From positions 1 through 41,343 of IMG/VR virus record IMGVR_UViG_3300021354_000013: a DNA stretch of 41,343 nucleotides. One strand, given 5' to 3'. Below, piece after piece: positions 1 through 41,343 of this stretch. A model generated the notes under the pieces. The model was not told the DNA's origin. It saw only the letters and a list, made by a program, of their open reading frames with translations, and did not search any database. The translations under genes and the position numbers were made by a program. Every line of letters starts with the position of its first letter. Positions within the stretch are counted from its first letter, which is position 1. Source of the stretch: a virus. Lineage: Duplodnaviria > Caudoviricetes.

Positions 1-131
1 GGGCAAAAGGCCATGCAGAAAGACGCAAAAGAAAAGCGTCGGGAAGTGAGAGCTGAAGCGCGCGTCGAGGTGCTATCACAGCCGGTCTACCGCGCGTGGA
101 CATTGTTGACGGCTAAGGTTAACCCTGAGGA
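1..131. repeat. Terminal direct repeat (left copy), most likely an assembly overlap of a circular or circularly permuted genome
   Basis: nt 6-131 are identical to 41218-41343; nt 1-5 differ at 2 positions from 41213-41217. Confidence 0.95.
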
Positions 132-3100
132 TCGTCTGCCTAAACCTACTGTCACCAAGTCAAATCCTAACATAGTAACGCCGGAGATCGATTCGCTTTT
201 TGCGGCGGTCGCAAAACTAGGCGGGCTTAACAAAGCCGATCTGATATCGCAATGGGGTTTAGATCCTGCGACAAAACAATACTCAGGTGTGTTTGGTAAA
301 CCGGTGTGGCGTAGAGAAGGAGGCTTAACGGTTGATGGGATGCTCGAGGCCTTAATACCTTACGGATATCTCACCTTAGACGAACACGGTAAGCCTGAAG
401 ACAGTCGCGAATTTGAAGAGTTATTTGATCGCGAGTTGCGAGGTGAGCCACAGTATTCGGTTGAACATGCGTATGACCGCGACCAAGAGCAACGCGCCGG
501 CAGTCACATTGCTAACCCTTATGCGTTAAACGCAGTGCGCTTTGATAAAGGAGATTTGATTGGGGCCGGCGTATCGGACGAAGACCTTAACAAGCTGCAA
601 GCGTACAAGATGGTGGCAAAAAGCGACGGCATTAACCAAGACATTATTGCGGATCTTATTTTAGACGAGAACGGCAATCCTGAATTTACGTCGGGTGATG
701 ACTTGATCCAGCAGTTAATGGCCGCAACACCACCGAATGAAGAGATCGAGGCGCTGACGGACTTGCGTATGCTTGAGAAGTACGGCGACCTATCATCACC
801 TGACGCGATTGAGAAAGCGGCGGATCTTGCGATTCATAACGAAGCGCGCGTTAAGATGGTGGCCACCGAAGCCAATGCTTTGGCAAAGGCAACAGGCGGT
901 CGCAAAATACTAGCGAGCGCAGCTAAGATGTTGGCCGCAACCACCATTGGACGTAAAAAAATACGCGATCTTTTACCGAGCGTTTTTACCAATGCAGAGG
1001 TGAAAGCGGCTAAGTCTGCCGAGAAGTACATGCGCGCGAAAGATCTTGTCAACGCCGCCGCTGAGAAACGCAACCAACTTTTTAACATGTATGCGGCTAA
1101 GGCTGCGATGGACGCTAAAGACGAGGTGGAAAAAGGCCTACGCTATCTGAAGAAATTTAACGGTGTTATTAAAGGCATTGATGTTGATTACGCCGATCAG
1201 ATTGCCGCGATACTAAGCCGGTTTGATTTGCGCAAGATTAGCAATAAAGAAGTTGATCGCCGAAAATCTTTAGCTGCGTGGCTGGTCTCTCAAGAAGATG
1301 AGGGTTTTGTTCCGGATCTACCGGAGCATGTCACCAACGAAGCCTTTATCAAATCATATAAAGAACTGACGGTTGAAGAGTTTAGAGGCGTGCTGGATTC
1401 GGTCAGGCAGATTGAACACTTAGGCCGTCTTAAAAAGAAATTGCTACTGGCTAAAGACCAACGCGAGTTTGAAGCCATCCGCGATGAGATTGTGCAAAGC
1501 ATTAACGACAACTCACAAGGCCGTATCGCCAACACCCGCACTATTAACACCGGTGTTGAACAGGCTAAGAAAAAATGGGGCGCTTTTGCCTGGGGACATG
1601 CCAAAGTGGCGACCTTGGTTAAGGTGCTGGATGGTGGAAATATCGGCGGACCGGTTTGGGAATTTTTAGTAAGGCCCGCCAATGAGCGAGGTGATTGGGA
1701 AACCACGCAGCGCGCTGAGGCAACGCTTGCGCTTGCCGAGATTATGGCACCAGTGTTTAAGCTGGGTAAGATGGGCGGTAAAGGCGTAAAGTTTCCTGGT
1801 ATTGATCGCAGCTTTAACCGTGAAGCGCGTATTGCGATTGCACTTAATGTCGGTAACAAAGGCAATTTGCAACGCTTGTTAGGTGGTGAAGGCTGGAGTC
1901 TGCCGCAGATAGCACCAATCTTACAGTCTTTGACACGGGATGAATGGCTTGCTGTGCAAGCAATATGGGATCACTTTGAGACTTACCGTCCGCTGATTGC
2001 TGCAAAAGAGCGCAGAGTCTATGGTAAAGAACCTAACTGGGTAGAACCTACCCCCTTCAACATGACGACCGCAGACGGGGAAACCGTCAACCTACGCGGC
2101 GGGTATTACCCGATTAAGTATGATCCTGCGGCCAGCCAACGAGCAGAAGAACATAGCGACGCGGAAGCGGCAAAGCGCCAACTACAAGGGGCGTACACTT
2201 CAGCGACGACACGTCGCAGCTTCACCAAAGCGCGTGCAGAAGAAGTGAAAGGTAGACCTTTGCTTCACTCGTTGACTGGTGTTTATTCGGGTGTGAATGA
2301 CGTGATTCACGATCTGGCTTGGCATGAGTGGTTGATTGATACGAATCGCTTGATCAAGAATAACGCGATTGATACTGCGATTCGTCAACACTATGGACCG
2401 GAATTTAAAAACCAATTTAAGACGTGGACAAGCGCGATTGCTGAAGGTGAAAAAGGATCTGACAATACGGTTGATATTGCGCTTTCTAAAATTCGCCAAG
2501 GCGTGAGCGTATCGGGTTTAGGGTTTAACGTCATGTCTGCGGCGATGCAACCGACTGGATTTACGCAGTCTGTGTCAGTGGTAGGCGCAAAATGGATAGG
2601 TATAGGCGTTAGCCGATATTTAGCGGATATCAAAGGATCTACGCAATCCGTCAACGAAATGTCAGAGTTTATGGCCAACCGCACGCGTACTCGATTTAGA
2701 GAATTGAACGAGTTACGCAATTCGGTTGAGGATCAATCGCCGTATAAAGAATGGTTAGGCCGATACGCATACTTTTTAATGATGCGCTGCCAACAGATGG
2801 TCGATGTCCCCACCTGGATAGGCGCGTATGAGAAAGCGCAAGCCAATGGTGAGATAGAAGAACGTGCAATCGCTTTAGCCGATCAAGCCGTGATTGACTC
2901 CCAGGGCAGCGGGATGTTGAAAGATCTCTCTGCAATTGAGCGAGGTGGCGCTGCGCAAAAACTCTTTACCGTGTTTTATTCGTACATGAATACCGCGCTT
3001 AACATTGGGATTGGTAAAACGATGTCGGCGGAGATCGGGAAACGTAAAGCAAAACTAGCGGCGGATTACCTTTTGCTTTACGTTTTACCGCCGGTATTAG

Positions 3101-3513
3101 GGTTTGCTATTAAAGAAGCGCTCACCCCAACGGGTGACGATGACGACGATTATTGGGAGAAGCTACCTAAGCGTCTAGCTGCTAACCAAATCGACTATCT
3201 GATGGGTTTGATGGTGATAGTGCGCGAGTTTTCTGAGGCGGCTAAATTGATGGCCGGCGTAGAGGATCATAAGCAAGATTACCAAGGACCGGCAGGTGTG
3301 CGAATGATTGCGGATACCGTCAAGTTTGGGGAGCAATTAGGCCAAGGTGAATTTGATACGCCATTCCGCAAGGCTTTTGTCAATTTGATGGGTGATGCTT
3401 TTGCCCTACCAAGCGCTCAGATCAACCGAACTGTCACCGGAATAGAAGCGATATCCGAGGGCAAAACGTCCAATCCTGCGGCGATAGCATTCGGGTTTAA
3501 AGAGAAGCATTGA
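13..3513 (+). CDS. C-terminal 1166 aa of the giant internal virion/DNA-ejection protein (continuation of the ORF starting at 34562)
   Basis: ATG at 13 corresponds to in-frame ATG 41225 of the open frame from 34562; mostly helical sequence; position before the tail fibre as in BPP-1/epsilon15-like podoviruses. Confidence 0.9.
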   Translation: MQKDAKEKRREVRAEARVEVLSQPVYRAWTLLTAKVNPEDRLPKPTVTKSNPNIVTPEIDSLFAAVAKLGGLNKADLISQWGLDPATKQYSGVFGKPVWRREGGLTVDGMLEALIPYGYLTLDEHGKPEDSREFEELFDRELRGEPQYSVEHAYDRDQEQRAGSHIANPYALNAVRFDKGDLIGAGVSDEDLNKLQAYKMVAKSDGINQDIIADLILDENGNPEFTSGDDLIQQLMAATPPNEEIEALTDLRMLEKYGDLSSPDAIEKAADLAIHNEARVKMVATEANALAKATGGRKILASAAKMLAATTIGRKKIRDLLPSVFTNAEVKAAKSAEKYMRAKDLVNAAAEKRNQLFNMYAAKAAMDAKDEVEKGLRYLKKFNGVIKGIDVDYADQIAAILSRFDLRKISNKEVDRRKSLAAWLVSQEDEGFVPDLPEHVTNEAFIKSYKELTVEEFRGVLDSVRQIEHLGRLKKKLLLAKDQREFEAIRDEIVQSINDNSQGRIANTRTINTGVEQAKKKWGAFAWGHAKVATLVKVLDGGNIGGPVWEFLVRPANERGDWETTQRAEATLALAEIMAPVFKLGKMGGKGVKFPGIDRSFNREARIAIALNVGNKGNLQRLLGGEGWSLPQIAPILQSLTRDEWLAVQAIWDHFETYRPLIAAKERRVYGKEPNWVEPTPFNMTTADGETVNLRGGYYPIKYDPAASQRAEEHSDAEAAKRQLQGAYTSATTRRSFTKARAEEVKGRPLLHSLTGVYSGVNDVIHDLAWHEWLIDTNRLIKNNAIDTAIRQHYGPEFKNQFKTWTSAIAEGEKGSDNTVDIALSKIRQGVSVSGLGFNVMSAAMQPTGFTQSVSVVGAKWIGIGVSRYLADIKGSTQSVNEMSEFMANRTRTRFRELNELRNSVEDQSPYKEWLGRYAYFLMMRCQQMVDVPTWIGAYEKAQANGEIEERAIALADQAVIDSQGSGMLKDLSAIERGGAAQKLFTVFYSYMNTALNIGIGKTMSAEIGKRKAKLAADYLLLYVLPPVLGFAIKEALTPTGDDDDDYWEKLPKRLAANQIDYLMGLMVIVREFSEAAKLMAGVEDHKQDYQGPAGVRMIADTVKFGEQLGQGEFDTPFRKAFVNLMGDAFALPSAQINRTVTGIEAISEGKTSNPAAIAFGFKEKH

Positions 3514-23182: not shown

Positions 23183-24574
23183 ATGCAACTGAATGGATTA
23201 TCCCTAGCAATAACAAACATCTTGGGCGGTAGGTTTAACCCTTTAACTTGGTTTGCCGCGGGAGAACAAGGCGCATGGTACGATCCAAGTGTCTTGACGA
23301 CTTTGTTTCAAGACAGCGCAGGCACTACGCCTGTCACGGCAGTAGAACAACCTGTCGGGTTGATGCGCGACAAGTCAGGTAGAGGCAACCACGCCTTCCA
23401 AGCCACAGCAGGCAACCGCCCGATACTGAGTGCAAGGGTGAATATATTGACGTATAGTCAAACATTTGCTTCTCCTTGGGCAAACATTCGATCTACTGTT
23501 CCTCCAAGTATGATACCTGCGCCTGATGGAACAATTAGTGGTGTTTTATTTACTGAATCATCTTCAGCAGGTACTCAATTTATAACCCCTGTTGGCGGTG
23601 GAATAGTAGCTTCATCTGCGGGAACATACACTTTTAGTGTATATGGAAAAAATAATGGAAGATATTTAACATTAGCTGGCAATAATGGGATATCCAACTA
23701 CATTTCTGTCATTTTTGATTTAAGTTTAGGGACATATTATCAGTATCAATCTGGTGGGCAAATTATAAATTCAGTTTCATGCACACAAATAGGTTCAACA
23801 GGTTGGTATAGATGCGTAGTTACTGCTACATTTACAGCAGCATCAGGAATTAATATAGCTGGGTCTAATGTAACTACCGTTCCTACTGGGGGTTATGGAC
23901 TACCAACTTATACAGGTGATGGTGTATCAGGATTTTATCTCTGGGGAGCAGACCTACGCCCAACAAACGCAGGCGCATTGCTTCCACCTTATCAGCGCGT
24001 CAACACCGATACCGATTACGACTCAGTAGGCTTTCCGCTGTATCTCAAGTGTAACGGCACAAGCTCTGCTATGCAGACAAACTCTATTGATTTCACCGCG
24101 ACAGATAAGATGACTGTGGTGACTGGAGTTAGGAAGTTGAGTGATACTACGAATCAAAATGTATTTGAAATGGGGAACACTTTACCAGCTGGAGGTTTTA
24201 ACTTATATGCACCAAACACTTTAAACTCACCAAGCTATTCGGCATATGTTAATGCTGGAAATGTATCGTTAATAAACTCGTCTAATAGTTACCCTGCACC
24301 AATATCTAATGTTGTTTCTCTGTTAGTGAATAATAGTGGTGTCTCACCAAATCAACAATTGTTAAGGGTTAATGCAGTAGGAAGCGGCACTCAATCAGCA
24401 ACGCTTTCAGGTAACTTTACAAATATACCTTTATTTTTGTTTTCACGGGCAAGTACATCTTCGTTCCTTAACGGTCAATTCTACGGCGCAATCATTCGAG
24501 GCGCACAATCTGACGCAGCATCAGTGACTCAAACCGAGAACTACATGGCACAAAAAACAGGGATCACATTCTAA
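23183..24574 (+). CDS. Head spike fibre / carbohydrate-binding virion protein
   Basis: GAWYDPS.LTTLFQDSAGTTPVTAVEQPVG..RDKSGRGNHA N-terminus; GWYRC.VT; LamG-like C-terminus; follows the spike-base genes. Confidence 0.65.
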   Translation: MQLNGLSLAITNILGGRFNPLTWFAAGEQGAWYDPSVLTTLFQDSAGTTPVTAVEQPVGLMRDKSGRGNHAFQATAGNRPILSARVNILTYSQTFASPWANIRSTVPPSMIPAPDGTISGVLFTESSSAGTQFITPVGGGIVASSAGTYTFSVYGKNNGRYLTLAGNNGISNYISVIFDLSLGTYYQYQSGGQIINSVSCTQIGSTGWYRCVVTATFTAASGINIAGSNVTTVPTGGYGLPTYTGDGVSGFYLWGADLRPTNAGALLPPYQRVNTDTDYDSVGFPLYLKCNGTSSAMQTNSIDFTATDKMTVVTGVRKLSDTTNQNVFEMGNTLPAGGFNLYAPNTLNSPSYSAYVNAGNVSLINSSNSYPAPISNVVSLLVNNSGVSPNQQLLRVNAVGSGTQSATLSGNFTNIPLFLFSRASTSSFLNGQFYGAIIRGAQSDAASVTQTENYMAQKTGITF

Positions 24575-26090: not shown

Positions 26091-26393
26091 ATGACCAGAG
26101 ACATTGATCCATTTTCACTTGAAGACGCGCAGGAAGAACTTTCTAAACGCGCAAGATTCACAGCCGATCTGGAGATCAATGATCTTAAATGGTTGATGAG
26201 TAACAAGCGGGGGCGTCGTTTCGTTCATCGCTTGCTCGAACGCGCAGGCGTTTGGCGGCTCTCTTTCAATACCAATGCGTTATCGATGGCTTTTGCTGAA
26301 GGCACGCGTAACGAAGGGTTGAGACTGTTGGCCCAACTGACCGAACACTGCCTAGATCGATATACCGAGATGCTTCAGGAGCAAAAAGAATGA
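26091..26393 (+). CDS. Conserved head-module protein (BPP-1 Bbp19-like)
   Basis: DLKWLMS.KRGRRF..RLL..AGV...SF......MAF.EG.RN.GL. Confidence 0.75.
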   Translation: MTRDIDPFSLEDAQEELSKRARFTADLEINDLKWLMSNKRGRRFVHRLLERAGVWRLSFNTNALSMAFAEGTRNEGLRLLAQLTEHCLDRYTEMLQEQKE

Positions 26394-27034
26394 CTGATAC
26401 GCTGATGACTGACGGCCAAACTACCCAAGTAACCGATAGCCAGACGACCGCTGACACATCTACCGACAATTCATCGGCAGACACGCAGCAAACCCAGGTG
26501 ACAGATACCGATAGTCAGACGACTGACCAGGCGAAAGCCGATGCAGACGCGGGGAAAGACGAAGGCGATAAGCCTGGCGCCCCCGAGAAGTACGAATTTA
26601 AACCGCAAGAAGGCCGCGTCTTTGACGAGGCAATCCTTGCAGCCTATTCGGACGTAGCTCGCGAGTTGAATCTATCGAATGAGGATGCACAAAAAGTGCT
26701 GGATAAGGTCGCACCGGTCATGGCCGAGCGACAACTAGCGCAGATTGAAGCCGCAAAGAACGAGTGGGCAGAGTCCGCAAAGTCTGACAAAGAGTTCGGT
26801 GGTGAAAAAATCACCGAGAACCTTGGCACGGCAAAGAAAGCCCTTGATGCTTTTGGCACCCCAGAGTTGAAAGCCCTGTTAAACGAGTCGGGCTTAGGTA
26901 ACCACCCCGAAGTAATTCGGCTAATGTACCGCGCCGGCAAAGCGATCAGTGAAGATAAATTTGTGGGAGGTCGCCAAGCGGCACCTGGCACAAATGGCTC
27001 GCTCGCTGACAAACTTTATTCTAATCAAAAATAG
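26390..27034 (+). CDS. Capsid assembly scaffolding protein
   Basis: Acidic Thr/Gln-rich N-terminus, GAPEKYEF, GLGNHPE.IR...AG.AISED; directly before the capsid gene. Confidence 0.8.
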   Translation: MTDTLMTDGQTTQVTDSQTTADTSTDNSSADTQQTQVTDTDSQTTDQAKADADAGKDEGDKPGAPEKYEFKPQEGRVFDEAILAAYSDVARELNLSNEDAQKVLDKVAPVMAERQLAQIEAAKNEWAESAKSDKEFGGEKITENLGTAKKALDAFGTPELKALLNESGLGNHPEVIRLMYRAGKAISEDKFVGGRQAAPGTNGSLADKLYSNQK

Positions 27035-31564: not shown

Positions 31565-32140
31565 ATGGCTTATGGTGTAGTCAACTCGTCCTTCAAAGGG
31601 CTAGGCGGTGGCGGGGGAATGGGCGGTTTAGGCGCAGGCGTCATGGCGCTGCAAATTGGCGGGATGCTTTCATCCACAATCGGATCATTCTTTAGCGCTG
31701 AAACGCAGAAATACCAACTCAAAACCCAAGCAATCATTGCGGATACCAACGCGCGTATCGCAGAGCTAGGCGCGCAGTCTGCGCTCAATCAAGGCCAACA
31801 TGAGATTGGCAACCTCACGCTTAAAGCCGGCCAACTTAAAAGCACCCAACGCACTTCAATGGCAGCGAACGGAATCGACTTAGGTGAAGGTAACGCGGCG
31901 GAGGTCTTAGCCTCAACCGAAATCATGAAAGAGGTCGATAAGAACACCATCCAAGCTAACGCCGTGCGCAGCGCATGGGGCTATCGGATGCAAGGCACGA
32001 ATTTCCAGAACGAAGCATTAACCGCGCGCAATGCGTCCAGCGCAATTTCTCCCTGGATGGCGGGCGCTTCCACAATGCTTGGCAAAGCCACGGACGTGGC
32101 ATCGAGTTGGTACATGATGAATACCATGGGTGGTAATTAA
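31565..32140 (+). CDS. Internal virion (ejection) protein, T7 gp14-like position
   Basis: Gly-rich hydrophobic N-terminus, Q...MAANGIDL..G.A, NA.R.AWGY. Confidence 0.78.
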   Translation: MAYGVVNSSFKGLGGGGGMGGLGAGVMALQIGGMLSSTIGSFFSAETQKYQLKTQAIIADTNARIAELGAQSALNQGQHEIGNLTLKAGQLKSTQRTSMAANGIDLGEGNAAEVLASTEIMKEVDKNTIQANAVRSAWGYRMQGTNFQNEALTARNASSAISPWMAGASTMLGKATDVASSWYMMNTMGGN

Positions 32141-32141
32141 A

Positions 32142-34565
32142 ATGCCTAGAGTCCCAACATACGACAGTTTTCAGGCGACCCCTAACACCTTACCGCAATC
32201 GTTTGCCAAAGCCCCTGATGTTTTAGTCGATCCAGGGCAGACCGGTAAAGTCATGGGCGAAGCGCTTACCCATGCGGGCAATACCTTTGGCAAGATCGTG
32301 CAAGACATGAACGAGACCGCCAATCAATTACGATTAGATGATGCGGCCAACCAGCTTCGAGAAGGCGCGCGTAAATTACAGTTTGATAAAGACGTCGGTT
32401 ACACCAACCTCAAAGGCAAGAGCGCGCTTGACCGGCCAGATGGCTTGTCCCTTTCAGATGAGTATGGCGGAAAACTACAAGAGCATTCGGATCAAATTGC
32501 CGCGTCTTTGGGGAATGACCAACAGCGACAAGCATTTGCGCATTTCTCTGGCGGGTTTGTACAAGGCTTTAAGAGCAATGTATCCGCGCACGAGGTGAAA
32601 GAATTTACCGATTACGGATTGTCTGTATCGGACGGAATACAAAAAGGCGCTATCGATGATATCGGCTTAAATTGGAACAATCCGGCTGCGGTCAACGATG
32701 CGGTGTCACGCATCCAGGCAGAGACCTACCGGCAAGCACAACTCTTAGGCAAGTCGGCCGAATGGCAAGACGCGCAAGCCAAAACTATGACCAGCCTAGC
32801 GCACAAGACGGCGCTGATGACGGCGCTGGATAACAACGATCCTTCCTACGCAGATAGCTATCTCAAGCGCTACGCCTCACAAATGCACGCGGACGATATT
32901 CTTACTGTAAAGGGCCATATCACCAAAGAGATGGACAACCGCATCGGGATGACCGCGTCGGCCGAAGTGATCCAAAAAATTCAACCACAGATCCAAGTGG
33001 GGGACGGGGAACGGGCCTTTAATATTCTACTAGACGCGGAAACCGGCAATAAACAATTTGCTGGCAAGTTTTACGGATTACGCCCAGACGGCACCCCAAA
33101 AGGTTCTGGGTATTTCGGCGAGCTTAAACGCCCTGATGGTGGCGTGATGACCGAGTTTAGCGTAGGTGTGAACATCAAAGGAAAGGAGATGGATATTCCG
33201 ACGCTGGTTCCTACGCTTACCCAAAAAGAAAAAGACATCATCTTGAATATTAAAGACGGTGAAAACCTGCCGGATTCAATCATTCAAAAAGCCGTAGATC
33301 ATGCAAACAAGCGCATCGATCAAGGGAAGTCTGTTTGGGCGGATACCCCACAACCCATTACTAGCGTTAAGGGTGCCGTAGGTGCTGCCCAAGTGATGCC
33401 GCCCACTGGACCGGAAGCGGCCGAGCTTGCGGGGTTGCCTTGGGATGAGAATCGATTTAAATACAACAAGGGCTATAACAAAGCCTTGGGCTTGGCGTAT
33501 TTCCAAAAGCAATTACAAGATAACAGTGGGGATTTGGCCAAAGCCTATGCCGCGTATAACGCAGGACCTGGCGCTTTAAAAGAAGCCACCAAAAAAGCCG
33601 ACAAAGAAGGCGGCGACTGGCTGTCTTACCTACCCAAAGAGACACAGGATTATGTAGCCGGCAACATGAAAGCATATGGCTCAGGTGAAGGTAAACCCCC
33701 GCGCGCCACCTTTGAAGAAATAGACGCGCAGCTGCGGGCGGATCCGCGTATTGCCGGCAATCCAGATCGATACAAGATTGCCAGGGCGGATGCTAAGCAA
33801 CGCTTTGAAGAGCAAACGCAAGCAATCAAACAGCGCGATGATGACGCGCTGGCAACCGCGCTTAAAGGTGTTGAACAAAACGGTGGGCGCTTTAGCGACC
33901 TACCGCCAAGCGTACGCGCAGCGGTACCGGTCGATAAGCGCGACGCCGTCATCAACTACGCGCAGAAAGTGGCTAAGGGGGATGACACCACCAGTCCTTG
34001 GCTCTACTCCAAGATGTCTAACGACCCCATGAAAGATCCTTACACTGGTGAAACCATGTCGGATAGCGCGTTCTACCGCTATCGTCCTGAGTTATCCGAT
34101 GCGGATTTTCGTAAGTTTACCGACGAGCGCAATAAGCGCTCTGGTAAGACAGCGGGCAGCGGTGGTCCTGGGGATCTAAATAGCGCGGCGATTAAGCAGA
34201 ACCTAGATACCAATCTCTGGAATTTAGGTATCAAACCTAATCCTAAAAGCGATTCGGACAACGAGCGCGTGGGTGCTATCCGTAAATTTGTAGATGACTA
34301 TTTTATCGCGGCGCAACGTGAAGCCGGTAAGAAATTTACCGATGCTGAAGTAGCAACACACCTAAACAATCTCTTTGCAAAAAACGAAACCTTTAAGCGT
34401 TTTTGGTCAAGCGATACCAAAGGACCGTTACTCTCAATGAAGATTGGCGACATCCCGCCTGGGGATAAAACCGCGATCAAAGAGTCTTTCAAAAAACAAG
34501 GTGTCAGCGATCCGACCAATGCCCAAGTCCTCAATGCCTTCTTTATGACCAAGGTTACTAAATGA
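32142..34565 (+). CDS. Internal virion protein with soluble lytic transglycosylase domain
   Basis: MPRVPTYD start; ETG...KGAVGAAQVMP.T, AYAAYNAGPG, LPKETQDYV. Confidence 0.88.
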   Translation: MPRVPTYDSFQATPNTLPQSFAKAPDVLVDPGQTGKVMGEALTHAGNTFGKIVQDMNETANQLRLDDAANQLREGARKLQFDKDVGYTNLKGKSALDRPDGLSLSDEYGGKLQEHSDQIAASLGNDQQRQAFAHFSGGFVQGFKSNVSAHEVKEFTDYGLSVSDGIQKGAIDDIGLNWNNPAAVNDAVSRIQAETYRQAQLLGKSAEWQDAQAKTMTSLAHKTALMTALDNNDPSYADSYLKRYASQMHADDILTVKGHITKEMDNRIGMTASAEVIQKIQPQIQVGDGERAFNILLDAETGNKQFAGKFYGLRPDGTPKGSGYFGELKRPDGGVMTEFSVGVNIKGKEMDIPTLVPTLTQKEKDIILNIKDGENLPDSIIQKAVDHANKRIDQGKSVWADTPQPITSVKGAVGAAQVMPPTGPEAAELAGLPWDENRFKYNKGYNKALGLAYFQKQLQDNSGDLAKAYAAYNAGPGALKEATKKADKEGGDWLSYLPKETQDYVAGNMKAYGSGEGKPPRATFEEIDAQLRADPRIAGNPDRYKIARADAKQRFEEQTQAIKQRDDDALATALKGVEQNGGRFSDLPPSVRAAVPVDKRDAVINYAQKVAKGDDTTSPWLYSKMSNDPMKDPYTGETMSDSAFYRYRPELSDADFRKFTDERNKRSGKTAGSGGPGDLNSAAIKQNLDTNLWNLGIKPNPKSDSDNERVGAIRKFVDDYFIAAQREAGKKFTDAEVATHLNNLFAKNETFKRFWSSDTKGPLLSMKIGDIPPGDKTAIKESFKKQGVSDPTNAQVLNAFFMTKVTK

Positions 34566-37500
34566 GCAGTGAATTTGATTCAGCCGTAACAAACGTAATT
34601 AATAACGAAACCCCTGCACCAGATAAAGCGCAAGCTGCGCGAGAAGGCTATGTGGGTGCTGTCGACACCAATCCAGATGTTTATGCGGAGATGCAACGCG
34701 TGGCGCGTCGAGTAGGCGTGCCTACCAATGTAGCGATGGATATGCCTCAAGAAGTTAAGAAGCAAGCGAGCATCGGCTCAATTAATTTTGACACACTTGC
34801 GCAAACCAATCCCGCTACTGCTTCATTGTTAGCGGACACCGACAAAGCCAAAGTCGCGCATGATGATGTGCCTAATCTACAAGCGACCGAGCGCACCTTT
34901 ATCGAAAGCGCAATAGAACCAATTCAGCGAGGCTATGCGCAAGGACGCGCGGGGCTATCGTTGATGCTGCACTCAATGGGGCTTTTCAAAGGCCTGGATG
35001 CGCAGCGCAAAGCAGCGGCTGAAGCCAACGGAATCCCTTACGATCCGACGGTGGAAACGTCGAACATGATGGCGCAAAGACAGCGCGAAATTGAAAAGTA
35101 TCCAATCCCAGAAGACATTCAAAGAGGCATGGACGAGATCAGCAAAGCGCCGGATTTTTCGTCTGCGTTTGAAAGTGCGCTTTACAACAAGCGTGCCGTA
35201 TTAGAAACCACACTGCAATCGATTGGCACCAGTTTTCCGGCGCTGGCAACAACCGCCGGCGGATCTGTCTTTGGTCCACTAGGCACTGCGACCGGTGCCG
35301 GCATGGGCAGTTTTGCGGTGGAATACGGCAGCACCATGCAAGACGTGTTAGCCGACAAGGGCATGAATCCCACCAACGCGATGGATATACACCGCGTATT
35401 AAACGATCCTACCATCATGGATGCGGCGCGGGACAAAGCGCTTAAGCGCGGGATTCCGGTTGCAATCTTTGACGCCCTTACCGCGGGGGTAGCCGGCAAA
35501 CTGTTAGCCGGTGCTAAAGCTAACCCAACAAGCGTGGCAAGTCGTGTTGGCGGCGAGCTGGCGGTACAGGCGACCGGAGGCGCAGCGGGTGAAGCGGCAG
35601 CGCAAGCGGTTACCGGCGAATATAAACCAGGTGATATTTTGCTTGAAGCATTAGCCGAATTACCTACCGGATTGGTGGAGATTCCAGGCAATTACAAAGA
35701 CGCATTAGCCAAAGCGCAGCGCTCAGAAGATAACGCGCGATTTGTTGAAACCATAAACAATCTTTCCGAAGCGAGCAAAGTTTTACAACGCGATCCAGAA
35801 ACATTTGAGGCGTTTGTTAATCACGCCGCCGAAGATGGACCTGTAGAAAAAGTATTTATTGATGCTAACGCGTTGATGCAATCGGGTGTTGCTGATCAAA
35901 TCGCAGCAGTGTCTCCCTCGGTTGCCGAACAGTTACCTTTAGCGCAAAGCACAGGCGGGCAGATTGCCATTCCTGTTGGGGAATACGCTTCTAAAATTGC
36001 ACCCACTGAGTACGCACAAGCGTTAGTCGATCATCTTAAAACAAGCCCTGAAGAATTTAGCCGCGCTGAAGCGGCAGACTTCATGCAAAACCACCAGGAA
36101 GAATTACAAAAAGAGATCGAAAGATCACTGGGCAATTCACAATTGAGCGACGAGTTTAAACAATCCACTTCACGCTTAAAGGAGAAATTCCAAACGGAGT
36201 TAGACGCGCTTGGCCACCATACTCCCGATGTCAACAAAGCGTATTCCACCTTGTTGGGGGATTTCTTTGCGGTCAACGCGGCCAAGATGGGCATGTCACC
36301 TGAAGAATTGCACAATCAGTACGCGGTCCGCTTTGCCTCAGACTTACAGCAAGGCTATGACCAAAGCCGTGTGGATATGCATTTCAAAGACGTGACCAAA
36401 AGAATTGAAGGGTTAACGATTGCTGCTAATCAGTTGAAAGAAGGCAAGATTACACGGGAAGACTACGACAGATTAGTTAACGAATTAAAACCAGTAACAC
36501 CATATGCCGAGACCCCTACACCATCTTCTCTTGAGGATATGCAAACATCTTTAACATCGGATAAGGTTCCTAAGATAGGGGAAGCGGCAAGAACTTTAAA
36601 AACAGGAGATGCGGTAGGTTTGCGTTTAGACATCCCAGCATATCGAGATCATGGCGTATGGGTTGTGTCTATTCATGGCGCACGAGCATCAGATAAAAGT
36701 GGAATGGCGGGTAAAGCCACGGGGTACGACAGTGTTGCTTCTGTTACTGATGCTCGATTTGGAATAAATGAAAACGCAGGACTTAACATCGCGGCGGGTA
36801 AATCTAAAGCAACTATAGCCACCGTGGAAGGAAAATGGAAACCAATAACACCGGAAGAAGCGCATGCTAGAGTGACAGAGGCTTTGACTGATCCAGCGTG
36901 GACCCAGGTGGGAATGGATCCAGAACGACACAGCTATTTTTACGATAGAACAACAATGGAGCCCGTCGTTAGCGCGGATGAGGTTATTCAAATCGGCCCG
37001 TTGGTTATGGCGAAGAATCCTGTTTACGCGCCCAAAAATCATTTTTTATACCAAAGCAGAAACCTACAAACAGATACTCCAGCGTTTAAGAATTGGTTCG
37101 GTCAATCTAAAGTGGTGGATGCCGAGGGTAAACCTTTGGTGGTTTATCACGGTACAGAAGCAGATTTTGATACATTTGACCTTAACAAGATGGGCCTTAA
37201 TGGCTTGGCGATCGGCCCTGGATTCTACTTTGTAAATTCTAAATTAGTTGCCAGCGGGTATGGGGATAAATCCCTTGCTGTGTATTTGAAAGCGAATAAC
37301 CCAACTCTAAGTGTTACAAAGAAAACCATTACCAAAGCACAAGTAACAAAGATCATTGAAGACATGGAAAAGGAAGATGAGTATTTTCTTTCCAACTATG
37401 GTGATATTGAATACGAAGGACGTCGTGCTGTTTTAAACGCCGCGCTTGACGATATTTACACGCAATCTAAACACGATGCTGAAATAATAGGTTCGCTAAT

Positions 37501-40500
37501 CAACGTGGGCGGCGTTGATCGGGATAGCGTTATGGAGTCTGTTATTGCTCGTACTAAAAAAGACGGGTTTATCGTTGACGCAAGCATAGCCTCTCATGCG
37601 GCAAATGAAGGCGATAAAGTTTATGTTGTTCTAACACCTACTCAAATCAAATCTGCCACCGGTAACAACGGCAACTTTGATCCTAACGATGCGAATATTT
37701 ACAATCAAAGCGCAGTGGTTGAAGGCGCTAATGCCATCACTGGCGATCTTGACCGTGTAAACCCTGACGTAAAGGACGCAGTAGAAAGCCGAATTGCCCG
37801 CATGGGTGAAGAGGAACAGCAACGTGTACGAGCAAATCTAGGGGAACATAAAGGTACTGCGTGGGCAGCTGCTGCTATCAAAGGTATGGCGTACCGCGAA
37901 ATGCTAGAACGTGCGATGGATGGCCAAGACATATCTAACCTAGAGCGAAATGCAATCTGGGGAAAGCAAGATATGGCGGCTACCAAACTTGTTAAAGCAT
38001 TTAAGAAATATCCAGAGCATGGCGCTCGTGTTCTAAAACTGCTTCTTAATGCCTATGATTTTATTGGGGGAAACCGTAAAGCTGAGAACGATGTTTCAAC
38101 ATCCTTCACCAACTGTGATCCTAGTAAAGCGTGTGCGATCCATTGTTACGCCGCGACCGGTAACGCTAGGCCAAATGAAATAGCCAAATCGGAATTTACC
38201 GAATTTATGCTAGAGCGATTTCCGCAAGAGATGGCGGATAAACTGGCTTCAGACTATCTGGCAACGGAGGCCGGTAAGGCGGGGCTATCTTTACGGTTAA
38301 ACGACAAGGGGGATCTTTCACCCGCGCAGGTGCATGTTATCGAATTGCTAAACACTAAAGGAATAGCAATTCAGGTTTTTTCAAAACGTCCGGATTTATT
38401 GCGATCTATCTCTGATCTCAATTTAAAGATGCTTTCCATTGATGGCACCAACATGGAATTGGCCGATGCAAATCCTGATTTGCGTTTAGCTGTCACGATT
38501 ACAGACGAAACCACCGAAGAGATGTTAATGCCGATACACGACCGTGTATCCGTATATTTACCGGTTAACCTTAAAGGTAAGGCAATTACCAAAGAAGAGC
38601 TTAAAGCGCGCTTTCCAAATTTATATAGCCGAATGGCAAAAGAGAATCTTTGTCCAGTGGATGGGGGGAAACTCGAAACTAAGCCAGGCACTTCGTTTGT
38701 TGATATCCGTGACAAGACCGCAGACAAAGGCGTGTGGACATGTACGGCCTGTGATCTTTATGGCGCGGCAGGATGTTTTAAAGGGGATCGGCAAACTAAC
38801 CAACGAAAAGCACAAACAATTTCTTTGTCTGATTTGACTAAAGAATTACAATTATCAAAGGTACGCAAGGAGCTTCAGTCTAACCTGGAGACACTTTTAC
38901 AATTAGGGGGAATAGATGGAGAACTTTACAGCCAACTTAGCCAAGCACTTTCTAGCGGGCAACGCGCGGTTCTCGAAATTGCTGACACCGAAAGAGAAGG
39001 CAGAGGCGCTGAAAGCGCAAGCGGCCAGACTCAAACAATCGAGGGAAGCGGAAGCGGAACTGGACAGCCTTCTGGCGGAGAATACAACCAAGGCAACATC
39101 GTTCCTTTATCAAAACGATTCAACACCAGAAAAGTAGAGTCATACTTTCAATTCGCCGGCGTACAAGCCTGGACCGCCGACACACATTCTTTAACTTCCG
39201 CCGTTGAACGTATTAAAAAAGGTGAAAACCCAGAACAAGTCCGCAAAGAAACCGGCTGGCATATTGGTGCGGATGGTATGTGGCGATTTGAGATTTCCGA
39301 CGACAAAGCGCAATTTAACACCCCATACAACGATTGGACCGCCGATCGGATTCGCGAAGAAGTAAAAGTGTATTCTAATTTCGAAGGTAAAGAAGGCACC
39401 TATAAAGCTATTTTTAGAGAGGGTACGCCGGATCATTTTGGTGCCTTTGGCCGATCCGAAGAAGAAGCAGTTAATAATGTTGTTAGAAATGTTAGAAAGA
39501 AACGATTTGCGGATGAGGGCTTTGATATCTCTAAAGTCTCTGACGGGGATGCACACGTCTTATCTCACGTTTTAAAACACCCAGAATTGTTTGATGCCTA
39601 CCCTTCTTTGTTGAACATGCGTGTGCATTTTGAAGAAAACACTTACGCTTATCGGGGAAAGCTAGATCCCGACACAGATGTGATTACTTTGGCAATTACT
39701 GGTGATGAACAGCAAATGCTGTCCACATTGTTGCACGAGATTCAGCACGCGATTCAAGAAAAAGAGGGCTTTGGCAAGGGGGGAAACTCAGATAAACAGT
39801 TTACGTACGCAGTTAAAACTGCTTTAAAGGAGCTGTCAAACCAACAACAACGAAAAATTGCGGAATGGACAAATGACAATTTTGACAAGATTGTTGATTA
39901 CAACGTCGCCGCCAAAATAGCAAGATATGGATTGATGTACGAATCCGCGCAACGACTAATTGGATACGCCAACCGCAGCGAACCGTCTGGGGTATTTCGA
40001 TTGGTAAGGCAAGAGATGCAATGGCTTTATGCGGATGAGTTTCGGGAAAATGATAAAGCACAAGATCTTCAGCGCGATTTTTATAACATTCCTAAACGCC
40101 ATAAAAAGAACGAACGAAATGCCTTTATAGGTGATATGGCGTTTCGCGCGGGGCAAGTGTTGTTAGATGAAATTGGTCCGATGTATCAAGGGATGTTTAA
40201 GAACGATCCGCGCACCTTGAAAGGGATGTTAAAGGCGCTGGAAAGGGAAGCGGACAAAAAGCGCCAAGCGTTATCTCCATTGCACGATTTGCAAAAGCAA
40301 GCGCGGACGACCGAAAACGTAAGTCGTGCGCATGCTTCCTCAACACCGTTCGATGTATATCAATCTTTAGCAGGTGAGGTGGAGGCAAGAAACACCCAAG
40401 CGCGCCAGGCAATGACACCGGAAGAGCGTCGCAATACTTCACCTAAGCAAACAGCGGATGTGCCCGTTGATAAAATTATAGTTAGATTTGGTGGTTTGGA

Positions 40501-41343
40501 GATCCAAGCACCAATGGCGTCGATTGCGGAGCAGGCAACCTTTGACCAAGGCGCCGCCGTCAACCGAGGAAGTTTTAACCCAACCAACCTAACAATCTCG
40601 CTCTTAAAGAACGCGGATCTTTCGACGTTCTTACATGAGACAGGGCATTTCTTCTTAGAAATGCAAACGGATCTGGCTGCAAGGCTAGAACAGGAAGCTG
40701 GACTTTTTGGCATAGAAAACCTAAAGCCTGGCGAACAGCAGATTATCAAAGATGCTAATGCCATTTTAAATTGGTTTGGTTTACAAGATCTGGATACCTG
40801 GCACCGCATGACATTAGAAGAGAAGCGCGGATTCCATGAGCAATTTGCGCGCGGCTTTGAAGCCTATCTGTTTGAAGGTAATGCGCCAAGCATTGAACTT
40901 CAACCCTTATTCCAACGCTTTAAAGAATGGCTAAAACGCGTTTATAAATCCATCGAGGCGCTTAATGTTGAGTTGACCGATGAGGTGAGAGGCGTGTTTG
41001 ATCGCATGATTGCATCAGAAGAGCAGATCCAACTTGCAGAGCAAGCGCGCAGTATGATGCCTCTTTTCACGACACTCGATGCGGCACCCATGACGGCCGA
41101 TGAGTTTAGGGAATATCAGAACCAACAGCAAGAAGCGACTGCGACCGCCGTTGATGAACTCGACGCGCGGGGATTGCGTGACATGAAATGGCTGCGCAAC
41201 GCGCGAAGCAAGGTGCTAAAGGCCATGCAGAAAGACGCAAAAGAAAAGCGTCGGGAAGTGAGAGCTGAAGCGCGCGTCGAGGTGCTATCACAGCCGGTCT
41301 ACCGCGCGTGGACATTGTTGACGGCTAAGGTTAACCCTGAGGA
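34562..41343 (+). CDS. Giant internal virion / polyvalent protein, ~3387 aa across the circular junction (34562 to 3513); domains: unknown, ADP-ribosyltransferase, Gp88-like Fe-S, LPD23 plus zincin, second HExxH
   Basis: ATGA overlap with the SLT gene stop; the frame runs to the window end (no stop-terminated ORF in this frame in the track; segments translated by hand are open) and is in frame with the ATG of 13..3513. Confidence 0.9.
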   Translation, partial: MSSEFDSAVTNVINNETPAPDKAQAAREGYVGAVDTNPDVYAEMQRVARRVGVPTNVAMDMPQEVKKQASIGSINFDTLAQTNPATASLLADTDKAKVAHDDVPNLQATERTFIESAIEPIQRGYAQGRAGLSLMLHSMGLFKGLDAQRKAAAEANGIPYDPTVETSNMMAQRQREIEKYPIPEDIQRGMDEISKAPDFSSAFESALYNKRAVLETTLQSIGTSFPALATTAGGSVFGPLGTATGAGMGSFAVEYGSTMQDVLADKGMNPTNAMDIHRVLNDPTIMDAARDKALKRGIPVAIFDALTAGVAGKLLAGAKANPTSVASRVGGELAVQATGGAAGEAAAQAVTGEYKPGDILLEALAELPTGLVEIPGNYKDALAKAQRSEDNARFVETINNLSEASKVLQRDPETFEAFVNHAAEDGPVEKVFIDANALMQSGVADQIAAVSPSVAEQLPLAQSTGGQIAIPVGEYASKIAPTEYAQALVDHLKTSPEEFSRAEAADFMQNHQEELQKEIERSLGNSQLSDEFKQSTSRLKEKFQTELDALGHHTPDVNKAYSTLLGDFFAVNAAKMGMSPEELHNQYAVRFASDLQQGYDQSRVDMHFKDVTKRIEGLTIAANQLKEGKITREDYDRLVNELKPVTPYAETPTPSSLEDMQTSLTSDKVPKIGEAARTLKTGDAVGLRLDIPAYRDHGVWVVSIHGARASDKSGMAGKATGYDSVASVTDARFGINENAGLNIAAGKSKATIATVEGKWKPITPEEAHARVTEALTDPAWTQVGMDPERHSYFYDRTTMEPVVSADEVIQIGPLVMAKNPVYAPKNHFLYQSRNLQTDTPAFKNWFGQSKVVDAEGKPLVVYHGTEADFDTFDLNKMGLNGLAIGPGFYFVNSKLVASGYGDKSLAVYLKANNPTLSVTKKTITKAQVTKIIEDMEKEDEYFLSNYGDIEYEGRRAVLNAALDDIYTQSKHDAEIIGSLINVGGVDRDSVMESVIARTKKDGFIVDASIASHAANEGDKVYVVLTPTQIKSATGNNGNFDPNDANIYNQSAVVEGANAITGDLDRVNPDVKDAVESRIARMGEEEQQRVRANLGEHKGTAWAAAAIKGMAYREMLERAMDGQDISNLERNAIWGKQDMAATKLVKAFKKYPEHGARVLKLLLNAYDFIGGNRKAENDVSTSFTNCDPSKACAIHCYAATGNARPNEIAKSEFTEFMLERFPQEMADKLASDYLATEAGKAGLSLRLNDKGDLSPAQVHVIELLNTKGIAIQVFSKRPDLLRSISDLNLKMLSIDGTNMELADANPDLRLAVTITDETTEEMLMPIHDRVSVYLPVNLKGKAITKEELKARFPNLYSRMAKENLCPVDGGKLETKPGTSFVDIRDKTADKGVWTCTACDLYGAAGCFKGDRQTNQRKAQTISLSDLTKELQLSKVRKELQSNLETLLQLGGIDGELYSQLSQALSSGQRAVLEIADTEREGRGAESASGQTQTIEGSGSGTGQPSGGEYNQGNIVPLSKRFNTRKVESYFQFAGVQAWTADTHSLTSAVERIKKGENPEQVRKETGWHIGADGMWRFEISDDKAQFNTPYNDWTADRIREEVKVYSNFEGKEGTYKAIFREGTPDHFGAFGRSEEEAVNNVVRNVRKKRFADEGFDISKVSDGDAHVLSHVLKHPELFDAYPSLLNMRVHFEENTYAYRGKLDPDTDVITLAITGDEQQMLSTLLHEIQHAIQEKEGFGKGGNSDKQFTYAVKTALKELSNQQQRKIAEWTNDNFDKIVDYNVAAKIARYGLMYESAQRLIGYANRSEPSGVFRLVRQEMQWLYADEFRENDKAQDLQRDFYNIPKRHKKNERNAFIGDMAFRAGQVLLDEIGPMYQGMFKNDPRTLKGMLKALEREADKKRQALSPLHDLQKQARTTENVSRAHASSTPFDVYQSLAGEVEARNTQARQAMTPEERRNTSPKQTADVPVDKIIVRFGGLEIQAPMASIAEQATFDQGAAVNRGSFNPTNLTISLLKNADLSTFLHETGHFFLEMQTDLAARLEQEAGLFGIENLKPGEQQIIKDANAILNWFGLQDLDTWHRMTLEEKRGFHEQFARGFEAYLFEGNAPSIELQPLFQRFKEWLKRVYKSIEALNVELTDEVRGVFDRMIASEEQIQLAEQARSMMPLFTTLDAAPMTADEFREYQNQQQEATATAVDELDARGLRDMKWLRNARSKVLKAMQKDAKEKRREVRAEARVEVLSQPVYRAWTLLTAKVNPE
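38916..39137 (+). CDS. Candidate overprinted 73-aa helical protein inside the giant gene
   Basis: AGGGGG 5 nt before ATG; TACAAT at 38898; host frame here is largely a Gly/Ser linker. Confidence 0.45.
   Translation: MENFTANLAKHFLAGNARFSKLLTPKEKAEALKAQAARLKQSREAEAELDSLLAENTTKATSFLYQNDSTPEK
41213..41343. repeat. Terminal direct repeat (right copy)
   Basis: Matches nt 1-131. Confidence 0.95.

Follow-up and report, generated by a model that had tools for sequence, protein, structure and literature searches.

The 41,343-nucleotide stretch of DNA analyzed in this study (the window; IMG/VR record IMGVR_UViG_3300021354_000013) is in its entirety a circular podophage genome on one contig, with termini that overlap by 131 nt (129/131 match). 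It encodes a giant ejection protein of the Bbp10 type, in which cargo modules are joined at a short word, a hydrophobic residue two positions ahead of Gln (Phi-x-Gln). Comparison with related proteins shows that modules are gained, lost, and swapped at this word, that the word is kept at the protein level, and that it depends on the host protein, referred to here as the chassis; the same comparison shows that the conserved core following the last junction retains the residues of a zinc peptidase. Judged from these alignments, the junction code is real, family-wide, and protein-level, and it lies within a known protein class. In our reading, to which we give slightly better than even chances, the Phi-x-Gln words likely mark where the conserved core HExxH zincin would process the chain and release the modules in the host.

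Architecture of the giant ejection protein

The giant open reading frame (ORF) starts at position 34562, leaves the window at its end, and resumes at positions 1–3513 via the terminal overlap, which arithmetically yields a protein of approximately 3,390 amino acids (aa). Its core is 58% identical to Bbp10 of phage BPP-1 (E 4e-85), phrog_9880 matches both halves of the protein, and the order bbp12-bbp11-bbp10-bbp9 is the same in BPP-1 and the window. Bbp10 is classed as IVP-D, the equivalent of T7 gp16, in Table 2 of PMC4819975.

An earlier reading of the sequence alone had placed four unrelated domains between the N-terminus and the core, with every boundary on the same motif. All six codon strings that it named are found at the claimed positions and in frame with the ORF (aa 599, 829, 1047, 1508, 1528, and 1994), and domain searches bore out the four domains (modules 1–4). 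Its boundary list holds insofar as the six junction motifs (J1–J6) are present, but the stretch from YNQG to YFQF is a 20-aa module remnant and contains no domain. The features are listed below, with a slash marking the position after Gln.

34562–41343, plus strand: giant Bbp10/IVP-D-type ejection protein gene, 5′ part, 2,260 aa up to the window end (core resemblance to Bbp10; phrog_9880)
1–3513, plus strand: 3′ continuation across the circular junction, conserved C-terminal chassis (131-nt overlap; phrog_9880, E 0)
34562–36364, plus strand: N-terminal chassis with LPD22 (aa 27–113), a Gly/Ala-rich hydrophobic stretch, and a conserved anchor domain ending in J1
36356–36367, plus strand: J1, YDQ/S (breakpoint versus relative L001)
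36365–37054, plus strand: module 1, 230 aa (aa 602–831), weak L5 gp82/phrog_586 likeness
37046–37057, plus strand: J2, LYQ/S (breakpoint versus L001)
37055–37708, plus strand: module 2, ART-PolyVal (aa 853–1039, E 1e-22), predicted ADP-ribosyltransferase (ART) fold
37700–37711, plus strand: J3, YNQ/S (breakpoint versus L001)
37709–39091, plus strand: module 3, GP88-like, Cys-containing, with a low-complexity tail (Pfam E 1e-4; Atlas 0.92)
39083–39094, plus strand: J4, YNQ/G (core follows J4 directly in P0005, P0006, and P0008)
39092–39151, plus strand: 20-aa remnant of a deleted module (its C-terminal tail), with J5 at its end
39143–39154, plus strand: J5, YFQ/F (breakpoint versus L001)
39152–40549, plus strand: module 4, LPD23 and a cargo zincin (HEIQH at 39734)
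40541–40552, plus strand: J6, FDQ/G, six residues ahead of RGSF
40565–41050, plus strand: conserved core zincin with the RGSF strand, HETGH (40634–40648), and a downstream HE pair

In the window protein, LPD22, ART-PolyVal, and LPD23 exceed curated cut-offs, and GP88-like and DUF6782 were also matched. Module 1 gave weak matches only (Pfam L5 gp82, E 0.0013, and phrog_586) and no usable match in the Atlas; a marginal PADLOC match to JetA (E 0.005) was dismissed. Among relatives, P0006 carries a copy of module 1 with 87% identity, and the module is replaced or absent in L001, P0004, and P0005; module 3 is absent from L001 and P0009. The region of the 20-aa remnant is identical in 16/24 residues to the last module of P0095. 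The LPD23 module begins with FAG (39152–39160) in the window, L001, P0014, P0041, and AF, this being the only frequent bulky residue after Gln.

Modules are exchanged at the junction word

Module gain and loss at xxQ, as expected from the sequence-only reading, was borne out in alignments of homologs by the breakpoints relative to L001, by the module combinations of P0004–P0009, and by BLAST breakpoints. Between the window and L001 (96% identical in the core), 4/4 swap ends fall on the Gln codon (J1, J2, J3, and J5), with overlaps of 3–8 nt; the first module of L001 differs from that of the window, and module 3 is missing. In P0004–P0009, modules of the window and others appear in new combinations, with YxQ or LxQ at the joints. 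For the BLAST breakpoints, internal alignment ends among 196 non-redundant cargo regions were scored for a distance of ≤6 aa from [FYL]xQ. At ≥60% identity, 27/69 ends (6.5 for random positions) and 26/69 starts (7.0) lie within this distance, and at ≥75% identity 14/27 ends (2.7) and 9/26 starts (2.9). Furthermore, the cargo-less relatives L079, L095, L154, L156, L174, and L177 retain a single motif.

Traces of individual events are visible as well. Partial deletions or duplications in P0100, P0110, L027, and L002 have left pieces of modules behind, which likewise terminate in the motif. An exact 24-nt direct repeat in L001 (7653–7676 and 8106–8129) flanks the first module and spans the junction codons, which possibly reflects a recent insertion with duplication. 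Between LYQ and YHQ junctions, the cargo of P0007 contains a block that brings along a separate HExxxH zincin and words of the KYS/FAS type and was apparently imported from another polyvalent chassis.

The word is found throughout the family

The survey comprised 192 core hits in 190 loci, 156 of them with both anchors, corresponding to 113 non-redundant loci; 18 hits without the RG anchor, 14 without the N anchor, and 4 others were excluded. Within 13 aa before the core, [FYL]xQ is present in 100/113 non-redundant loci (random windows, 11.4; within-window shuffles, 26), and within 18 aa after the N-anchor in 94/113 (random windows, 16.3; within-window shuffles, 26). The earlier expectation that the motif is commoner at boundaries than elsewhere is therefore borne out in homologs. 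In a held-out set of 141 cluster representatives, the motif was found before the core in 124/135 and after the N-anchor in 104/122, with a search profile that included some motif columns and may favor motif carriers.

At E ≤ 1e-30, the core profile matches 5,116 clusters (50% identity). The motif is carried by the cultured phages BPP-1, Jess A, Carin1, Ab9, AF, PS25B.1, and CP2, and the same motif occurs in phages of Bordetella, Caulobacter, Cobetia, Pseudomonas, Vibrio, and Xanthomonas. Cargo was surveyed in 101 of 104 regions and includes ART-PolyVal (~40), PBECR1/3/5, LPD3, RadC, GNAT, MuF-C, LPD23, LPD37, a zeta-like kinase, and DUFs.

A few family members deserve mention. L141, L159, and L164 (and L050/L129, L181) constitute a group in which the first strand of the core is altered, and the left motif is kept in L141, L159, and L164. 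P0013 is a 2,496-aa protein with four matches to the core zincin profile. The divergent relative vir555 (L196, BK063671.1), the record of which carries a Methanomicrobiales host label, has the junctions QFQ/A and RFQ/L, a shifted word of the form x-F-Q, alongside a divergent zincin.

The word is a protein signal set by the chassis

The alignments indicate that the junction word is a protein signal and not a DNA site, because the codons at the motif follow each gene's own usage. The Gln codon is CAG at 135/206 junctions, compared to 140 expected from the usage of each gene. The first motif position is encoded by all six Leu codons as well as by codons for Phe, Tyr, and a few Met or Val, with third-base GC tracking the gene, and, whereas synonymous positions shift with GC, Gln and the hydrophobic class are retained between proteins of ~50% identity. 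The left and right junctions within a gene have on average 3.68 nt in common, no more than junctions taken from different genes; the repeat in L001 is an exception.

The ART module offered a view of the same domain in different proteins. The search profile was cut before the tail, 160 further loci were fetched, and tails were read in register after a conserved G-x-F-[DSN]. The tail has the form I-Phi-x-Q in 34/34 cases (28 proteins) with a clear Bbp10-type anchor and in 7/7 with a weak anchor, but in only 9/131 (108 proteins) without such an anchor, where I-R-[FY]-S is dominant; these tail counts ignore descent. In the other chassis, the word at the ART tail is found again at the protein's own upstream junction in 36/112 cases versus 9 in permutations (max 20). 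Moreover, one ART subfamily was found in both chassis, ending in ILHQ/S in one and in ILHS/R or IRFS/R in the other (three pairwise comparisons): the ART of P0010 (ILHQ/S) scores 120 and 110 bits to other-chassis ARTs ending in ILHS/R and IRFS/R, and 101 bits to the window ART. These comparisons indicate that the chassis, and not the module domain, dictates the junction word. Since one ART module ends differently in different chassis, the word does not belong to the ART fold; in the ART model, it is located at the edge between order and disorder.

The core zincin and the residues around Gln

The core zincin always adjoins the last junction. HExxH is kept in 139/141 held-out proteins, the other two of which matched only downstream of HExxH, and the downstream HE is invariant in 103/103 proteins of a set pre-filtered for HExxH. 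The downstream Glu at 40838–40840 is the predicted third zinc ligand. The suggestion that one of the protein's own HExxH peptidases reads the word stands with respect to the protein-level signal and to the core HETGH, which is a plausible reader; it does not stand for the cargo HEIQH zincin, which was rejected as a general reader because it is non-essential and its LPD23-linked form occurs in 4/101 cargo regions, whereas the word is nearly universal.

The model of the core (pLDDT 88) contains two strands and a beta-bridge at Phe-Asp of FDQ (pLDDT 60–76), a weak hint from which substrate-like pairing may be guessed. Foldseek of the core model against the PDB gave no match at E ≤ 0.001, and a PDB sequence search returned nothing meaningful. 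When the core with Zn was predicted in complex with a 33-aa J3 peptide, a control outscored the pair.

Gly, Ala, or Ser follows Gln at 106/206 junctions, and bulky hydrophobic residues do so at 6/206 (vs 29%); Pro is never found between Phi and Gln (0/206). The residues after Gln fit a predicted cut after Gln without fixing it, and a cut before the hydrophobic residue would be an alternative. Thermolysin-like enzymes prefer cutting before a hydrophobic residue. An N-end-rule argument for the cut position was set aside as suggestive only, since it is confounded by linker composition.

Processing and alternative roles of the word

According to the favored reading, the core zincin would cut the chain at Phe/Tyr/Leu-x-Gln, probably just after Gln. 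The N-terminal part and every cargo module close with the word, and cutting would free the modules once the protein has been ejected into the host. The middle part of T7 gp16 is cytoplasmic, between two membrane regions, in the account given in PMC8954989; by analogy, cargo and zincin would be in the stretch that reaches the cytoplasm, where they would refold and then be cut. The released ART, nuclease-like, GNAT, and JAB domains would act on host or defense targets early in infection, which makes an anti-defense role of the cargo modules putative. Shuffling likely proceeds by ordinary microhomology recombination at shared codons, with selection keeping products whose modules end in the word. 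A broader proposal, for which we estimate a little under even chances, is that, throughout a very large podophage family, the ejection proteins act as polyproteins that cleave themselves and have a plug-in slot, in which a Gln-specific zincin reads Phi-x-Gln and any domain gaining the word becomes an injected effector; other chassis would use their own peptidase-word pair, with modules re-coded on moving.

Several observations weigh against processing by the core zincin. Approximately 60% of the BLAST breakpoints lie >6 aa from the strict motif; part of these are overshoot and part real crossovers inside modules, so that the rule is strong but not absolute. The surveyed loci share descent, and the counts ignore kinship. 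Among the dropped rows listed, L050, L129, L141, L159, L164, and L181 lack the right-hand motif. Pro after Gln (18/206) and Phe at J5 are awkward for one fixed cut after Gln, and hydrophobic depletion extends to +2 on the right side, where linker composition can explain part of it. A VIA fold comparison of the core has zinc peptidases among its top rows as a weak match (Z ≤ 4.1, rmsd 4.9 over 105 residues). In the literature, no proteomic data were found for any Bbp10-type protein and no processing data for Bbp10, and N4 vRNAP, ArdC, and TraC1 carry metallopeptidases (MPTases) yet are packaged or transferred uncut, as described in the main text of PMC5512222. Finally, bare [YFL]xQ is barely enriched inside the window protein (23 observed vs 15.8 in shuffles, p 0.033); [YFL]xQ[SG], a pattern chosen post hoc, occurs 12 times compared to 2.0 in shuffles (0 of 2000), but 7/12 of these sites are off junctions, two of them within the modelled ART fold. 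As the motif is not rare within the window protein, the argument against chance rests on the homologs, where it is very strong.

The alternative that survives best, with a low probability, is that the word serves as a handle for docking or threading: each Phi-x-Q would be bound by the core or by a different ejection protein to order, pack, or feed modules while the chain stays whole. The comparative results show protein-level recognition and not hydrolysis, Pro is found at +1 in 18/206 junctions, and the MPTase-bearing N4 vRNAP is packaged uncut with its MPTase region needed for encapsidation, as stated in the main text of PMC5512222. However, the whole family retains the catalytic Glu and every predicted zinc ligand, and P3-x-P1 with a small next residue is a known form of protease site, exemplified by A-x-E with Ser preferred at P1′ in SPN3US (as reported in PMC10052503).

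Somewhat less probable still is a functionless scar of microhomology recombination, by which new modules would inherit the resident junction codons. The crossovers at 3–8 nt overlaps on the Gln codon and the exact 24-nt repeat around the first module of L001 are in its favor. It is harder to reconcile with junctions that are no more similar within a gene than between genes (3.68 nt), with the persistence of Gln and the hydrophobic class at ~50% protein identity despite synonymous sites drifting with GC, and with empty chassis that keep one motif. In-frame microhomology, one of the mechanisms offered by the sequence-only reading, is thus retained for the crossovers, which do use the short overlaps at the Gln codon, but as a pure DNA effect it is insufficient, given that codons follow the gene background and within-gene equals between-gene identity.

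We regard it as unlikely that the word is cut by another enzyme, whether a protease of the host or a maturation protease that the phage encodes separately and that acts in the head. The form of the word resembles prohead-protease rules (A-x-E in SPN3US, in the account of PMC10052503), and the ORF at 26390–27034 is labelled “protease” by PHROG (phrog_458). This ORF, however, has no Pfam match and reads as an acidic, scaffold-like protein of 214 aa directly before the capsid gene; from sequence and gene slot we judged it to be the scaffold and the label to be probably wrong. In addition, the word is constant across six host genera and differs between chassis, a pattern more in keeping with a reader encoded in the chassis than with one from the host.

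It is very improbable that the junctions are DNA sites on which a site-specific recombinase of the integron or shufflon type acts. Nucleotide-precise swaps would suit such sites, as would a motif for each module and a single one in the empty state, but the codon test, with codon use equal to gene background and no conserved DNA word beyond the codons, largely refutes them, and the window junctions share no direct or inverted repeats, no att-like repeats were found, and no recombinase was seen among the larger ORFs scanned in the window (small ORFs were not all covered).

Genomic context

The giant gene is part of a late virion-gene context, with terminase, portal, capsid, nozzle, gp14-like, and SLT genes upstream and a tail fiber gene downstream. 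Together with Pol A, SNF2 helicase, and VapE primase, the terminase, portal, capsid, nozzle, gp14-like, and SLT genes form a BPP-1-like set. The operon context is fixed by the following upstream genes.

31565–34565, plus strand: upstream ejection genes, T7 gp14-like and SLT lysozyme-bearing

The GC content of the cargo region is 0.44–0.47, compared to ~0.52 in the flanks. The SLT ejection protein (32130–34565) has an apparent insertion of ~100 aa at 33030–33400, between the ETG catalytic motif and the remaining SLT domain, and its Pfam match is limited to aa 411–493 (profile positions 32–111). Between portal and scaffold, an ORF of 463 aa (23183–24574, GC ~0.40) has no Pfam, PHROG, or PADLOC match.

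Comparison with known systems

The giant protein had been put forward as a candidate for an undescribed system. That description does not apply to the class, as polyvalent proteins with proposed MPTase autoprocessing have already been described (PMC5512222); the junction code is the new part. In its main text, that study (Iyer, Burroughs, Anand, de Souza, and Aravind, 2017) defines polyvalent proteins, proposes autoprocessing by the MPTase, draws an analogy to RNA-virus polyproteins, and cites a processed P1 DdrB. Like polyvalent proteins, the window protein combines disparate domains in one late-gene polypeptide (LPD22, ART-PolyVal, LPD23, and an MPTase), to which its relatives add PBECR1/3/5, LPD3, RadC, GNAT, MuF-C, and LPD37, and it possesses a predicted zincin-like MPTase with HETGH and the invariant downstream HE. 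The passages of PMC5512222 covered here name neither a junction motif nor a cut site, and mention no fixed slot for cargo and no example from BPP-1; its main text has no occurrence of “linker” or “boundar”. No published junction motif or code and no Bbp10-type processing was found in the literature covered, with most subscription papers and the supplements of Iyer 2017 outside its scope, and the passages covered of PMC9503650, PMC3974807, PMC13730344, and 10.1101/2021.05.28.446129 hold no junction information. In the part of a phi24B preprint that was available, a 2,811-aa polyvalent protein is present in virions, with no processing reported.

The closest known counterpart is Bbp10 itself, a protein of 2,052 aa annotated as a crystallin-motif protein or lysin, which has the same gene order and carries FDQ/E and FYQ/G around one PBECR1 module, compared to four modules in the window protein. 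The junction code turns the 2017 autoprocessing proposal into residue-level predictions in the cultured phages BPP-1, Caulobacter Jess A, Pseudomonas AF, and Cobetia Carin1. The junction word also provides a rule by which thousands of giant “hypothetical” proteins can be split into their true modules, and putative early effectors of the kind of modules 1 and 3 become expressible with native ends. If the favored reading is true, it would add a new sequence-specific peptidase family and explain how injected cargo continues to be exchanged without disturbing the DNA-ejection machine.

With the prohead protease gp245 of SPN3US (A-x-E), the window protein shares the form of a P3-x-P1 motif and a small following residue, on head proteins that are ejected; in SPN3US, however, a separate protease gene trims N-terminal propeptides, whereas the sites in the window protein are internal and the candidate zincin resides inside the substrate (as far as described in PMC10052503). 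Integron and shufflon arrays need a conserved DNA site at cassette ends, which the window junctions lack. RNA-virus polyproteins are cut at Gln-Gly/Ser by 3C-like proteases. These polyproteins and the window protein both have Gln and a small residue at domain boundaries, but the former rely on cysteine proteases and a fixed gene order, while the latter combines a predicted metallopeptidase with freely exchanged modules.

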